Shown piece after piece: positions 23,968 to 29,435 of a stretch of DNA of 64,000 nucleotides. The stretch lies in NCBI RefSeq assembly GCF_055900595.2, contig NZ_CM148325.1; one strand, 5' to 3'. Numbering within the stretch: position 1 is the first letter of the stretch; each line of letters starts with the position of its first letter. The notes beneath the pieces were generated by a model. The model was not told where the DNA came from and did no database searches. It was given only the letters and a program-made list of their open reading frames with translations. A program made the position numbers and the translations under genes.

Positions 23968-24507
23968 CTATAGCTGTTTATTCCAGAGATGCTTGAAAAT
24001 ATCTAATGTGGAGACAACATTGGCAGGCGACATTCGGTTTAATGAGGATAGAAAGGGATGAGACTCCAGGAAGTTGATAAAACGAGTCGCGCTTGCTAAC
24101 GTCGAATACCGCATTTCATTTGCTTTCTTGTTTCCTGTAAGGTTACAAACAGCCATTGAATAATCACGGGCGGAAAATGCACGCCAGACATTATTTCTCA
24201 CGCCACCACTCAAAAACAACCGCGGCGGCGTATCATAATGAGTCGTTTTCTCGCCGCGTTCTTTCACAAATGAAATATGGCACCGGCCTTGATGAATATG
24301 CTGTAAATTAGCCATTAGACAACCGCCTAATATAAAGCACTCGTGATCAAGGTAGTGTTGAATATTTATAGAATATGCTTCAGTCAGTACTCTAACCAGT
24401 TCAAAATGGCGATACGCCGGAAGAACAGGTTTCACCAGCATCCCCGGATCGTTTTGATGTAATATCGCCCGACCATAATCAATATCAAATAAAGTATCAC
24501 GTCGCAT
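23968..24507 (-). CDS. Hypothetical protein (179 aa), function unknown
   Basis: ORF with its own strong Shine-Dalgarno (AAGGAG 8 nt upstream of ATG); overlaps the 3' end of the upstream zinc-ribbon ORF by 76 nt in another frame; no recognisable motif. Confidence 0.5.
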   Translation of the reverse strand: MRRDTLFDIDYGRAILHQNDPGMLVKPVLPAYRHFELVRVLTEAYSINIQHYLDHECFILGGCLMANLQHIHQGRCHISFVKERGEKTTHYDTPPRLFLSGGVRNNVWRAFSARDYSMAVCNLTGNKKANEMRYSTLASATRFINFLESHPFLSSLNRMSPANVVSTLDIFKHLWNKQL

Positions 24508-24944
24508 AGTAAGTAACTCCTTGCGTTGTACGTGATGCGCCAGTGTACCAGAAGTAATAATTTACGGATATCAGCAAGTGAAGCGCCTTGCTCAATCATC
24601 AATGCTAAATGTGTTCTTCGCGGCGTTGTATTTACATGATCCAGAGTGATAAAAGTTCCGGAACAATGATGACAATACATTCTCCTCTGCCCCTGAGCTG
24701 AATAGCCATACTTTTTCAGAGATGTGCTTCCGCAAGCTGGACATTGTGAAACCAACCCTCGCCATGAATGATTAACACGATTACGATAAATATTAAGAGA
24801 TCGTTCAGATATCACAGGAAACAAGTAACCGCATTCTCGACATAAAATATTTTTGCCTTGTGCAATATAATCCTGGCTATTCAACAACCCCAGGTTTTTG
24901 CATCCTGGTGTTTTGCAACAATCAACATTTACGTTGGTAAACAT
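24432..24944 (-). CDS. Tandem zinc-ribbon plus putative HTH protein, IS1 InsA-like
   Basis: Four CxxC pairs (CCKTPGC, CRECG, CPACG, CHHCSG); the second ribbon (CPACGSTSLKKYGYSAQGQRRMYCHHCSGTF) resembles the IS1 InsA zinc finger; start set at MFTNVNVD, which has an AGGGAG Shine-Dalgarno (ORF track starts 12 codons earlier without one). Confidence 0.5.
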   Translation of the reverse strand: MFTNVNVDCCKTPGCKNLGLLNSQDYIAQGKNILCRECGYLFPVISERSLNIYRNRVNHSWRGLVSQCPACGSTSLKKYGYSAQGQRRMYCHHCSGTFITLDHVNTTPRRTHLALMIEQGASLADIRKLLLLVHWRITYNARSYLLCDVILYLILIMVGRYYIKTIRGCW

Positions 24945-24998
24945 ATTCACTCCCTGCGAATACCCGGATATTATCGTCATATGTCAAAGAAAAGAACC

Positions 24999-25023
24999 TG
25001 ATTCAATGTGTAACATTGAATCA
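24999..25023 (-). terminator. Perfect 11-bp inverted repeat hairpin downstream of the sulfatase gene (putative terminator or operator)
   Basis: tgattcaatgt-gta-acattgaatca; on the minus strand it is followed by a T-rich stretch (ttcttttcttt). Confidence 0.5.
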
Positions 25024-25073
25024 GGCGGGCATAGCCCTAAATGGCATACATTACATTTATTATGATTATCAGG

Positions 25074-26567
25074 TTAGCCCCAGGTCACTGCTTCTGGTTT
25101 ATCACCTCTGGCTTTCATTAATGAATCATTATCAATATCGGCTTTATACTTTAAGAAATTACCATACATTTGTTTTTCAATGTCTGGATTTTTACCTATC
25201 TGATTAATGGTCTCAAAACGATCGGTTTTGAGGTTGTATAGGTACTTTGGCTTATTGTTACGATCGATGATCATTTTCCAGTCACCATCACGTATCGCCC
25301 ATTCGTCGGTTGGATCATCCTGGAATGGCATGTCAATTCCGAAGATTAATGGCTTTTCACGTTTTAGCGCCTTGTTCTCAAGGACAGGAACCAACGATTC
25401 GCCATCAAAAGTGCGGTCCGTCGGTAATTTGAAGTTCATCATTTTCGCCAGCGTAGGCATCCAGTCCAGACCATAAACGGGAGTATCTGAAACCATTCCC
25501 TTTGGAAGATGCTTTCCGTATTTAATAATCGCCGGAACACGGATGCCGCCTTCCCAAAGATTATCCTTGCGACCACGTAATCCATCCGTTTCCCCTGCCA
25601 AATTCAGCTCATACACTTTGCGCGCTTCACGCGTTACCGGACCGTTATCACTGGTAAAAATAACGATTGTGTTATCTTCTTCACCCATCGCTTTGATTTT
25701 ATCCAGCACTTTTCCAACCTGTGCATCCAGATAGCTGATGTTGGCATAATATTCCCCCACACCACGCCAGGGTTTATCCGCCCAGTCGCCATAAAATAAA
25801 TCAGGATGCTGTTTCTGATAGTCGCTCATATATTGTGAGTACATGTCGAGGTATTTTTTGGGCGAAGCCAGGGGACTGTGCACTTCGGTAAAAGCGACAT
25901 AAAGGAAGAAAGGCTTACTATCCTTTTTGTTATCCAACCAGTTAACGACTTCCGAACTGACATACTCACCACTCATTTTATCGGCACGAGGTGTGGGTTG
26001 CCCGTTACGCAACCAACCCGTCGGATACACCATGCCAAAACGGGGACGCTCCTTCGCATTATCCAGAGTAGCGTCGGTAACAAAACCCGCCGTATTAACC
26101 AGTGAGTAATCAAAGCCCATATCTTGTGCTTGTGGCTGATCGGTGCGATCGCCGCCTGCATTCAGATGCAGCTTACCCATCATTGCCGTGTCGTACCCTT
26201 GCGCTTTGAGTAGATTAGCAATCGTGAGTTCGTTACGCCCTAAGGCAACATCTTTGCCTGAAGGAATCCATGAGCGAATTCCAGTACGAAATGGCATCCG
26301 GCCGGTTAATAGCCCAGCGCGTGAAGGTGAACTTAAAGGGGCGGGGGCATAGTAGTCAGTAAATTTGACCCCTTCCTGGGCAAGCCTGTCGATATTAGGT
26401 GTTTTAACGATCTGATGACCATATGTTGCTAAATCGCCATAACCTAAATCATCCGCCATAATAATGACTAAATTAGGTTGTTTAGCCTCTGCGGCTAAGG
26501 CAGGACTAAAAGCATTCCCTGTGCAAACTGCAAGGCCGATCAAACTGGCCATTAACGTTTTCTGCAT
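25074..26567 (-). CDS. Periplasmic sulfatase, Ser-type
   Basis: 497-aa ORF with signal peptide and sulfatase signature region PLSSPSRAGLLTGR (Ser at the formylglycine position), LVIIMADDLGYGD metal-binding motif. Confidence 0.8.
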   Translation of the reverse strand: MQKTLMASLIGLAVCTGNAFSPALAAEAKQPNLVIIMADDLGYGDLATYGHQIVKTPNIDRLAQEGVKFTDYYAPAPLSSPSRAGLLTGRMPFRTGIRSWIPSGKDVALGRNELTIANLLKAQGYDTAMMGKLHLNAGGDRTDQPQAQDMGFDYSLVNTAGFVTDATLDNAKERPRFGMVYPTGWLRNGQPTPRADKMSGEYVSSEVVNWLDNKKDSKPFFLYVAFTEVHSPLASPKKYLDMYSQYMSDYQKQHPDLFYGDWADKPWRGVGEYYANISYLDAQVGKVLDKIKAMGEEDNTIVIFTSDNGPVTREARKVYELNLAGETDGLRGRKDNLWEGGIRVPAIIKYGKHLPKGMVSDTPVYGLDWMPTLAKMMNFKLPTDRTFDGESLVPVLENKALKREKPLIFGIDMPFQDDPTDEWAIRDGDWKMIIDRNNKPKYLYNLKTDRFETINQIGKNPDIEKQMYGNFLKYKADIDNDSLMKARGDKPEAVTWG

Positions 26568-26587
26568 AATTATTCCCTGATAAAAAA

Positions 26588-27349
26588 TTAGAAATCATAA
26601 CCAAGCATATAAATCATTTGATCGCCAAAGCCATCGTAGCCCAGCTTATTATCGAAATAACGCCACGTCACACTGGCTTTCCAGCGAGGATAGAACTTCC
26701 AGACAATAGTTAAACCGCCATTTAATCCGTTCCGGCCAAATTGCTGCTCCGTGTAAGCATCGTTCCTGTCCAGTTCTATTTCATTCCAGTTAGATAAAAC
26801 AAATTTTTCGTCAAATAACATAAATGGCAATACTGCTGTCCAGCCAACAACATAACCATTCCAACCATTCGTTTGACCATATTTAGCTGATACGTAGTCA
26901 CCAGATTGATTATGTAATCCAATATACGGTTTAAAAAAGCCCCACTCGCCGTTCCAGCCGAGATAACCGAATCCATAAAACATGTCCAGATCGTCACCCC
27001 ATGAGTTATCCCATTGGCCATAAATTTTGCCAAAGAATGTCATATCAGAGTCAAAGAGTCTGACATGCGTCATTGCTGAAACCGTATGATTTCTCCCTGC
27101 TACAGCATGATTGAGTACATTACTTTCATAAAATGAGTAAAATTCTGCTTCTTTAAAATTTACCCCAAAATCCGCAGTCACTTTCCATACTTCACCACGG
27201 TGAGTGTTTACAAATCCACTATTCCAGTCTGCATAACCCGCATTTATTGAACCAAAGGTTCCTTTATATTCTAATGAAGAATATGCAGGAAAATGATAGA
27301 TAGCTGTTATCAGGGTACACGCAATAAGAAGTCGTCTTTTGGCAGACAT
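26588..27349 (-). CDS. Outer-membrane channel, Tsx/OmpK family-like
   Basis: 253-aa ORF with signal peptide, aromatic-rich beta-strand pattern and C-terminal ...GYDF ending as in Tsx (GYNF). Confidence 0.7.
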   Translation of the reverse strand: MSAKRRLLIACTLITAIYHFPAYSSLEYKGTFGSINAGYADWNSGFVNTHRGEVWKVTADFGVNFKEAEFYSFYESNVLNHAVAGRNHTVSAMTHVRLFDSDMTFFGKIYGQWDNSWGDDLDMFYGFGYLGWNGEWGFFKPYIGLHNQSGDYVSAKYGQTNGWNGYVVGWTAVLPFMLFDEKFVLSNWNEIELDRNDAYTEQQFGRNGLNGGLTIVWKFYPRWKASVTWRYFDNKLGYDGFGDQMIYMLGYDF

Positions 27350-27903
27350 ATATTATGTTCTCCATTCATTGTTTTTATGATTCCATAGGAATTAATACAC
27401 CAGATAATTCATTTTGATTAAGAACGACTCAGAAAGTATATTTAAAGGTGAATGGCAAAGCGTGATGGAGATCGCAGATTACTTTTACCCCCGGGTGTGG
27501 AGGTATCGTGTTTCAAAAAGTGTGTCGATTTTAAATATCACTCATTGATTTATAAACATTTTTCCTCACAAAAAGAAAATTCAATTCTGTACAAGAATAT
27601 TTTGTATCTTCTATTACTTTCTCCAGTAATAACTCACCATTCAGGCATAACTTAAACCTCTTGTTCATAATCTCAACTTTTGTAAATGAAAACGCACATA
27701 AGAGTTAAAATAAACAATGTACTAAAGATTAATTACGCAAAAATGCGAGGCGTCTTCAGGATTAGAATCGATAAAACAGAATGGGTTAAAGAGAGCGATA
27801 TAATAGCGGCGGGTGCTTGAGGCTGTCTGTCTCAGGCATTAGCTGAACGGCAGATAGAGAAAAGCCCCGAGTGATATTTTACCATCAACCCGAGGCCCCC
27901 TAT

Positions 27904-28113
27904 ATGCAGAACACATGTAGAGTGCCTCTTACTGACCGTAAGGTCAAGGAGAAGAGAGCAATGAAGCAGCATAAGGCGATGATTGTCGCCCTGATCGTCA
28001 TCTGTATCACCGCCGTAGTGGCGGCGCTGGTAACGAGAAAAGACCTCTGTGAGGTTCACATCCGAACTGGCCAGACGGAGGTTGCTGTTTTCACGGCTTA
28101 CGAATCCGAGTAA
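27904..28113 (+). CDS. mokC: MokC, overlapping regulatory reading frame of the hok/sok-type locus
   Basis: 69-codon frame MQNTCRVPLTDRKVKEKRA... that reads in frame into hokC, as in the K-12 mokC/hokC arrangement. Confidence 0.65.
   Translation: MQNTCRVPLTDRKVKEKRAMKQHKAMIVALIVICITAVVAALVTRKDLCEVHIRTGQTEVAVFTAYESE
27961..28113 (+). CDS. hokC: Type I toxin HokC (Gef), small membrane toxin
   Basis: 50-aa frame MKQHKAMIVALIVICITAVVAALVTRKDLCEVHIRTGQTEVAVFTAYESE recognised as Hok-family toxin. Confidence 0.85.
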   Translation: MKQHKAMIVALIVICITAVVAALVTRKDLCEVHIRTGQTEVAVFTAYESE

Positions 28114-28216
28114 GAGCAACGGCGGGGAGTGATCCCCGCCACTTTACAGGTGCTCGCATATCTTCAACGCACCCTATTTTTACCCAAGCCTGCCCACAGG
28201 CAGGCTTTTGGGGAGG

Positions 28217-29347
28217 TTAGCGAGTCAGGTCGTCAAAAAACTTCTTCACACCATCAAAGAAGCTCTTTGAACGCGGGCTGTTGTGCTCACCGGTTGGGCC
28301 ACCGAAGCTTTCCTGCAGCTCTTGCAGCAGCTGTTTCTGCTTCTCGTTCAGACCTACCGGTGTTTCGACGACAACGCGGCACAGCAAGTCACCTTGCGCA
28401 CCGCCGCGAACAGACTTGACGCCTTTACCGCGCATACGGAACAGCTTACCGGTCTGGGTTTCGCCAGGCACTTTCAGTTTGACGCGACCATCAAGGGTCG
28501 GTACTTCGATTTCGCCACCCAGCGCTGCCATAGCGAAGTTGATCGGGACTTCGCAATACAGGTTGTTGCCTTCACGCTCGAAAATCGGGTGCTGTTTAAC
28601 CTGAACCTGAACGTATAGATCGCCTGCCGGTGCGCCATGCTCGCCCGCTTCACCTTCGCCCGCAAGACGGATGCGGTCTCCAGTGTCCACTCCTGCCGGG
28701 ATTTTAACGGACAGCGTTTTGCTGCGCTCAACACGACCATGACCATGACATTTGTTGCACGGATCTTTGATCAGCGTACCGCGGCCCTGACAGTGTGGAC
28801 AGGTCTGCTGTACAGCGAAGAAGCCCTGGCGCATCTGCACCTGACCAGAGCCATGACAGGTCGGACAGGTCTGCGGCTGTGTACCTGGTTTTGCACCGCT
28901 ACCGTGGCAAACGTCACACTCTTCCAGAGTCGGAATGCGGATCTCTTTGGTCACGCCACGTACAGCTTCTTCGAGGGTGAGCTCCATGTTATAGCGTAAA
29001 TCAGCACCGCGCGCCGCACGTTGACGACCACGTCCGCCGCCAAAAATATCGCCGAAAACGTCACCAAAAATATCGCTGAAGTCTGCGCCGCCGCCAAAAC
29101 CGCCGCCGCCCATGCCGCCTTGCTCAAACGCAGCATGACCATACTGATCGTATGCCGCACGTTTTTGCGAGTCGGTCAGAACTTCATAAGCTTCCTTGAT
29201 CTCTTTAAATTTCGCCTCGGCCTCTTTGTCACCCTGGTTACGGTCCGGGTGGTATTTCATGGCCAGGCGTTTGTAGGCCTTTTTGATTTCACGCTCTTCC
29301 GCTGTTTTGGAAACGCCTAAAATCTCGTAATAATCTTGCTTAGCCAT
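28217..29347 (-). CDS. dnaJ: Chaperone DnaJ (Hsp40)
   Basis: ORF contains [21 protein letters not shown]...HPDRNQGD J-domain and CxxCxGxG zinc-finger repeats; start trimmed to MAKQDYY. Confidence 0.97.
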
Positions 29348-29435
29348 CTTTTTTGATTTGCCCCTAGATGAATGCACGGGCGGAGAGGAAATTCCCCTTC
29401 GCCCGTGTCAGTATAATTACCCGTTTATAGGGCGA

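Follow-up and report, generated by a model that had tools for sequence, protein, structure and literature searches.

A palindrome downstream of an enterobacterial sulfatase gene is very probably a conserved intrinsic terminator

A perfect inverted repeat between a sulfatase gene and a zinc-ribbon gene may be read either as the terminator of the upstream transcript or as an operator for a dimeric regulator acting on the downstream gene, and the locus analyzed here raises this question. In the window, by which we mean the whole 64,000-nucleotide stretch of contig NZ_CM148325.1 (assembly GCF_055900595.2), a preliminary description had pointed out an 11-bp inverted repeat, tgattcaatgt-gta-acattgaatca, at 24999-25023, with the sulfatase terminator as the preferred reading and an operator as the other. 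The exact sequence is present, and the repeat is perfect but longer than 11 bp, its 13-nt arms (24997-25009, CCTGATTCAATGT, and 25013-25025, ACATTGAATCAGG) being 100% complementary around a 3-nt spacer, so that 2 bp are gained on each side. Its position between the two genes was also borne out: the sulfatase stop codon (25076-25074) lies 48 nt upstream of it, and the zinc-ribbon ATG at 24944 lies 52 nt downstream. As argued below, the palindrome is very probably the DNA image of a Rho-independent (intrinsic) terminator of the ompK-like/sulfatase transcript on the minus strand.

The features of the locus are collected in Table 1. Both genes flanking the hairpin are on the minus strand, and the OmpK/Tsx-like channel gene is the probable first gene of the transcription unit. 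The ompK-sulfatase-zinc-ribbon island was found in about 1,271-1,275 of 5,426 complete E. coli genomes, including B2 strains, such as UTI89 and ST131; in one sampled O157:H7 genome the match was limited to the nhaA flank and the island was absent, and E. coli K-12 is likewise not known to carry it. The interval between dnaJ and the island holds, on the plus strand, a hokC/mokC toxin ORF with sok (27811-28113), and the sok antitoxin RNA match is full-length (27811-27963, Rfam RF01794, 116.9 bits).

Table 1. Positions of the features at the sulfatase locus, in coordinates of the window.
Feature	Position	Strand	Remarks
nhaA	22550-23716	-	nhaR also on the minus strand
Zinc-ribbon (InsA-type) and HTH "cytoplasmic protein" pseudogene	23968-24944	-	Two frames, 268-bp deletion
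Whole 3'UTR module	24978-25073	-	Full-length covariance-model match, 95.9 bits, E = 4.7e-19
U-tract TTCTTTTCTTT	24986-24996	- (sulfatase sense)	Immediately 3' of the stem
Stem-loop of the putative terminator	24997-25025	-	Minus-strand arms 25025-25013 and 25009-24997, loop UAC (25012-25010)
Sequence-conserved block GTATGCCATTTAGGGCTATGCCC	25027-25049	-	Directly upstream of the terminator stem
AT-rich proximal 3'UTR, from sulfatase stop to conserved block	25050-25073	-	Moderately conserved, 0.52
Periplasmic sulfatase, 497 aa	25074-26567	-	Pfam Sulfatase, motif SSPSRAGLLTG
OmpK/Tsx-like outer-membrane channel	26588-27349	-	20 nt upstream of the sulfatase gene
dnaJ	28217-29377	-	

Regarding the anatomy of the element, RNA folding of the minus strand gave a hairpin of 14 pairs, the 14th being G25026.U24996, with CC/GG at its base and UUCUUUUCUUU directly after it; its folding energy is -18.8 kcal/mol alone and -25.4 in context (about -19 to -25), with a folding z of -5.5. 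The T-rich stretch that had been described on the minus strand is real, and corresponds to the tract in Table 1. The RNA of the plus strand forms a fold of about the same quality, but is then followed by CGGGCAUAGCCC, without a U-tract. In a consensus scan, the hairpin was the top terminator-like site of the 4.2-kb island on the minus strand, and its orthologue was likewise the top site of the Salmonella cluster. No other perfect inverted repeat of 11 nt or more with a spacing of up to 12 nt exists in the 64-kb window, and a search for the 25-nt pattern that tolerated up to 3 mismatches gave one occurrence in the window against 0.00 expected from 100 shuffles, which indicates that the dyad is not a chance feature.

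The conservation of the element was examined by scanning the sulfatase protein against species-representative genomes, which gave 21 enterobacterial orthologous loci, and by comparing their post-stop DNA and flanking ORFs. A homologous 3' region follows the sulfatase stop in 16 of these 21 loci, and the same module is found in S. enterica; it consists of an AT-rich stretch, a block with a small GGGC-nnn-GCCC hairpin, the large hairpin, and then TTCTTTTATTT. A metagenome scan with the conserved block gave 34 matches, 27 of them directly after an orthologous sulfatase with hairpin and T-tract, and the remaining seven unrelated, chance matches without hairpin or T-tract. Hairpin and U-tract follow orthologous sulfatases in 27 enterobacterial sequences, which comprise 23 distinct stems. 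The folding energies of the orthologous hairpins range from about -13 to -24 kcal/mol (-13 to -22 for the 23 distinct ones among the 27 sequences), and the T-rich tail has 5-8 T in the first 9 nt after the stem in all 19 orthologues examined, with invariant TTTT columns. A covariance model of the module built from the 27 orthologues had a single match in the window, and one copy was found per orthologous locus (window and 20 loci).

Other structures were noted at the same junction. More distant orthologues (Atlantibacter, Franconibacter and C. amalonaticus) have non-homologous stable hairpins there, which are G+C-rich, with a dG of -22 to -31 kcal/mol (sulfatase-maturase spacers of L019, L020, L024 and L027), and have U-tracts that are weak or absent. 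In Buttiauxella, which also belongs to the distant-orthologue set (L023), the sulfatase and maturase genes are 1 nt apart and there is no hairpin. A REP/BIME repeat was considered for the element of the window since its stem base, GCCTGAT...ATCAGG, recalls REP, and was ruled out on account of its single copy, the module having 1277 places in 1275 E. coli genomes.

The strand on which the structure is maintained was assessed from the pattern of substitutions, using a 19-sequence MAFFT alignment with an RNAalifold consensus fold, and a 27-sequence alignment. RNAalifold predicted two helices, and compensatory double changes were present in 8 of the 13 pairs of the large stem. Among the 19 sequences, 96.3% of cells were paired, against 25-43% when the partners were slid by 1-3 columns, and double changes were counted in 35 cells, against 10.4 +/- 3.6 in shuffled alignments; the corresponding values for the 27 sequences were 96.5% against 27-44%, and 49 cells against 12.5 +/- 3.6. 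None of 500 shuffles reached the observed count in either alignment. With the basal pair excluded, the stem had 19 G.U cells and 3 A.C cells. Since G.U is valid only in sulfatase-sense RNA and is a mismatch in duplex DNA or antisense RNA, this excess informs on the strand of selection and shows that the structure has been selected in the sulfatase-sense RNA. The sense fold was at least as stable as the antisense fold in every orthologue examined, and among the 27 sequences only 4 of the 23 distinct stems were perfect DNA palindromes.

The same behavior is seen within Escherichia, in which two hairpin alleles occur, the perfect palindrome of the window and a B2 type, CCUGAUUCAGUGC-UAC-GCAUUGAAUCAGG. 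In the latter, both sides of the loop-closing pair differ from the window type, with C-G in place of U-A, so that the change is compensated, and an A-to-G change elsewhere leaves a G.U pair.

In comparisons of Escherichia with other genera, identity was 0.335 at the 4-fold synonymous sites of the sulfatase gene, which are saturated, 0.31 in the 10 nt past the T-tract, 0.60 in the large stem, where the changes are compensated, 0.65 in the T-tract, and 0.79 in the 23-nt block upstream of the stem.

The order of the neighboring genes points to the transcript to which the hairpin belongs. A radical-SAM maturase gene of the anSME type is next to the hairpin in Citrobacter, Salmonella, Phytobacter and Kosakonia, and the identity of the Salmonella protein was confirmed by the Pfam domains Radical_SAM and SPASM. 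In these anSME-bearing genomes, the maturase gene separates the hairpin from the zinc-ribbon gene, which begins approximately 1.3 kb further downstream, and the T-tract is close to the anSME start, in S. enterica approximately 5 nt before the ribosome-binding site. The zinc-ribbon gene is itself the neighbor of the hairpin in Escherichia, K. oxytoca, K. spallanzanii, Kluyvera and P. massiliensis, and S. diarizonae has kept the hairpin without a zinc-ribbon gene. Because the hairpin stays at the sulfatase stop whatever gene comes next, it belongs to the 3' end of the sulfatase gene and not to the promoter of the zinc-ribbon gene. Judging from the gene orders compared, the ancestral cluster consisted, in this order, of the OmpK/Tsx-like channel, sulfatase, hairpin, radical-SAM maturase (anSME) and zinc-ribbon protein, and the maturase gene has been lost in Escherichia and in the other four taxa in which the zinc-ribbon gene adjoins the hairpin.

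These observations strongly favor the reading that had been preferred at the outset, a sulfatase terminator. In addition to the anatomy, namely, a hairpin with a U-tract on the sulfatase strand, it is backed by the compensatory changes in 27 orthologues, the strand-specific G.U pairs, and the fixed position after the stop codon. The element has a stable stem with a G+C-rich base and a U-tract 3' of it on the transcribed strand, it is co-oriented with the sulfatase gene past its stop codon, and its pairing in the sense RNA has been maintained in evolution. In the mechanism that we propose, RNA polymerase would transcribe a 13-14-bp hairpin 48 nt past the sulfatase stop, the folding of which over the weak rU:dA hybrid of UUCUUUUCUUU would release the transcript, and the hairpin would then protect the 3' end of the mRNA. 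The element is ancestral to the four-gene enterobacterial cluster, in which it lies inside the gene string between sulfatase and maturase, and the loss of the maturase gene in Escherichia placed the zinc-ribbon gene beside the old terminator, which accounts for the impression of a promoter-proximal operator.

In comparison with intrinsic terminators of Enterobacteriaceae, the element shares a G+C-based stem, a U-tract, location on the coding strand soon after a stop codon, and conservation of structure over sequence. It differs in its unusually long stem of 13-14 pairs with an A+U-rich upper half, its 3-nt loop, a U-tract interrupted by C at position 3, the lack of an upstream A-tract, the conserved block on its 5' side, and an ancestral location within a string of co-oriented genes and not at the end of it. 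A long stem with an AU-rich upper part, an interrupted U-tract and the lack of an A-tract predict moderate rather than strong termination efficiency.

Considering this location, the hairpin is probably an ancestrally leaky intra-operon terminator. In a sigma-70 promoter scan, the coding strand of the window had no site from the hairpin up to the start codon that follows it, and in Salmonella no promoter-like site was near the spacer. With the T-tract, moreover, close to the start of the maturase gene in genomes that have kept it, this gene and the zinc-ribbon gene would be transcribed largely by read-through, and we infer that termination does take place in vivo and is partial. A leaky internal terminator or 3'-end stabilizer of this kind would keep the amount of sulfatase above those of the maturase and the zinc-ribbon protein. 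Examples of such elements are the terminator within rpsU-dnaG-rpoD and the hairpins after malE and within the Rhodobacter puf operon. What the present element shares with leaky operon terminators and intercistronic stabilizers is a stable hairpin that parts a gene whose product would be required in quantity from downstream genes whose products would be required in small amounts, a downstream start within a few tens of nucleotides, and the lack of a detectable separate promoter; the element is a single copy and not a REP/BIME repeat.

A literature search by gene names and by the locus tags of UTI89, E. coli 536, LT2, SL1344 and 14028S yielded no transcript data, 3'-end data included, and a single relevant item, an SsrB ChIP-chip study of Salmonella. 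From the LT2 numbering and the gene order found here, STM0036 is probably the maturase gene. In an SsrB ChIP-chip table, the maturase and zinc-ribbon genes (SL0037-SL0038, LT2 STM0036) are listed as a separate predicted operon, which was 4-fold down in an ssrB mutant, and a weak SsrB probe signal overlaps, in S. Typhimurium, the sulfatase-maturase spacer (S. enterica L033 4687-4785) (PMC2837388). These data hint that the Salmonella spacer may also hold initiation signals.

One feature speaks against a plain terminator, namely, the 23-nt conserved block upstream, which such a terminator does not need. Its consensus is GTATGCCAYTTAGGGCnnTGCCC, and its identity of 0.79 stands against 0.335 at the saturated synonymous sites. 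It contains a small hairpin, formed by GGGC (25037-25034), a loop (25033-25031) and GCCC (25030-25027), that abuts the terminator stem; this is the second helix predicted by RNAalifold, and it showed no covariation. The block occurs only after orthologous sulfatases, both among the true metagenome matches and in the covariance search. In K. oxytoca, the block and the small hairpin have been lost and the terminator kept, which speaks against a purely structural role of the block. In our estimation, it is unlikely that the 3'UTR module with its two hairpins has a function beyond termination, with the block as a regulatory-RNA core or as a binding site that sets read-through; if true, read-through set by the block would couple the stoichiometry of sulfatase and maturase.

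In its more specific form, this alternative holds that the last 60-95 nt of the sulfatase mRNA are released or accumulate as a 3'UTR-derived sRNA, or that the block, as a site for protein or RNA binding, tunes read-through into the maturase gene. An AU-rich tract, a conserved stretch, a terminator and a U-tail are the usual layout of Hfq-dependent 3'UTR-derived sRNAs, such as CpxQ, SdhX and DapZ, and the block is placed accordingly, directly 5' of the terminator hairpin and U-tail and 3' of an AU-rich stretch, with high identity across genera in which synonymous sites are saturated and an occurrence restricted to the sulfatase 3' context. The terminator hairpin and U-tail would be shared with the parent mRNA, as in such sRNAs, and the block could supply a conserved single-stranded seed upstream of the terminator, but part of it is predicted to be paired. 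The module differs from these sRNAs in that no known family, no discrete transcript and no target was found: a search of 23000-29000 against Rfam 15 at E <= 1 gave no family for the hairpin and matched only sok, the literature examined by gene names and locus tags contained no transcript evidence, and the pairing of the block with the initiation regions of the cluster in 6 genomes was not above that of shuffles (all |z| < 1.7). Its loss in K. oxytoca despite the retained terminator and the small helix that never covaries also argue against an sRNA or a tuner, which we regard as quite unlikely. In the distal part of the sulfatase gene of Salmonella, no promoter-like site was found.

The operator reading, in which the dyad is bound by a dimeric regulator, such as the adjacent zinc-ribbon/HTH protein, and controls the zinc-ribbon promoter, requires an examination of that gene and its product. 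The likely true start is the ATG at 24944, which is preceded by GGGAG and used by all orthologues, and not the upstream ATG at 24980. Intact orthologues have 414-425 aa, and intact E. coli alleles, annotated as "cytoplasmic protein", have 414-419 aa. The gene of the window is broken by a frameshifting deletion of 268 bp relative to E. coli EC42405 (L001 2351-2618), with its junction at 24549/24550. To the left of this junction, the DNA is 100% identical to that of EC42405; to the right, the identity is 97.2% overall but falls to about 90% in 24550-25100, and this contrast shows that the locus is a mosaic of alleles. In another strain, E. coli VTB96815v, the zinc-ribbon gene is interrupted within the first few bases by an IS66 element (tnpA, tnpB and tnpC; L005 99-2411), which lies shortly past the terminator and parts this gene from the sulfatase gene.

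The zinc-ribbon protein is confined to Enterobacteriaceae (61 clusters) and is the conserved last gene product of the sulfatase cluster. Its orthologues (loci L010, L011, L014-L016, L019-L022, L024, L027 and L033) have two N-terminal zinc ribbons, the second of which is InsA/IS1-like, a helical segment resembling an HTH, and a C-terminal part of about 260 residues without a recognizable domain. The only Pfam domain recognized was the InsA-type zinc ribbon, in 10 of 17 orthologues, together with a weak IS1-like similarity at the N terminus. A structure prediction from 17 orthologues had a mean pLDDT of 51.7, which was too poor for a fold search, and a profile search of PDB sequences gave only generic zinc fingers. 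Judging from its domain content, the protein could be a domesticated transposase-derived regulator, and it may well bind nucleic acid. The evidence gathered at this locus and its orthologues provided no link between the protein and the hairpin.

The operator reading gains some plausibility from the window allele, in which the dyad is perfect over 13 bp with a 3-bp center and is near the downstream start, as in operators of dimeric HTH proteins, and from the neighboring protein, with its InsA-type zinc ribbon and a confidently modeled helical segment consistent with HTH. These properties are, however, those of one allele: 19 of the 23 distinct stems are not perfect DNA palindromes, their pairing being completed by G.U, which is a mismatch in duplex DNA, and the length and perfection that had been taken as a sign of an operator are therefore allele-specific. 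The half-site sequence varies freely with compensation. The palindrome had also been placed in the promoter region of the zinc-ribbon gene, which does not hold across genomes, the ancestral order having a whole maturase gene in between, and S. diarizonae has the hairpin without the putative regulator gene. A search of the 64-kb window for further copies of the palindrome returned no other copy or half-site, and no similar palindrome was found upstream of the cluster in the window, E. coli B2, Phytobacter or Citrobacter, where nothing is conserved. Furthermore, the putative regulator is itself a pseudogene in the window. In contrast to known operators of dimeric HTH proteins, dyad symmetry, half-sites and position relative to the zinc-ribbon gene are all unconserved here and there are no additional sites, and we consider an operator to be very improbable.

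Translation-coupled attenuation is extremely improbable. In this reading, an 8-codon mini-ORF, which begins with an ATG at 25047 and stops at a TGA (25023-25021) located in the 5' arm, would be translated, and the ribosome terminating on it would melt the terminator and allow read-through. The ATG is present in 26 of the 27 orthologues (TTG in the other) and the frame ends at the in-stem TGA in 17 of the 27 to give MP[LF]RA[MLV]P[AT]*, but the stop is lost in nine, in which the frame runs on through the hairpin, P. massiliensis has a frame-shifting deletion of 1 nt that leaves the small hairpin intact, the ATG has no Shine-Dalgarno sequence in front of it, and the apparent conservation of the peptide is expected from the nucleotide conservation of the block anyway.

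Returning to the intrinsic terminator, its gene context touches on the maturation of the sulfatase. The formylglycine-precursor residue at codon 79 (approximately 26333-26331, minus strand) is Ser in all 6 Escherichia sequences (SSPSRAGLLTG) and Cys in all 13 orthologues from other genera (CSPSRAGLLTG), the loci compared being L002, L003, L007-L018, L021, L022, L025 and L026. Ser-type sulfatases are those that strictly need a radical-SAM maturase, and the combination of a Ser residue with the lost adjacent maturase gene prompts the question of whether in Escherichia the enzyme undergoes maturation in trans or lacks activity.

The element is very probably an ordinary, well-conserved intrinsic terminator, which is a modest advance that mostly settles a question of annotation: the striking palindrome needs no new regulator and would mark the 3' end of the ompK-like/sulfatase transcript. 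If the conserved block is functional, it would represent one more case of regulation built into the 3' end of an mRNA. What Escherichia retains is a reduced version of the four-gene sulfatase cluster of enterobacteria, from which the maturase gene has been lost, and this reduction matters for studies of whether the sulfatase is active in extra-intestinal pathogenic E. coli.
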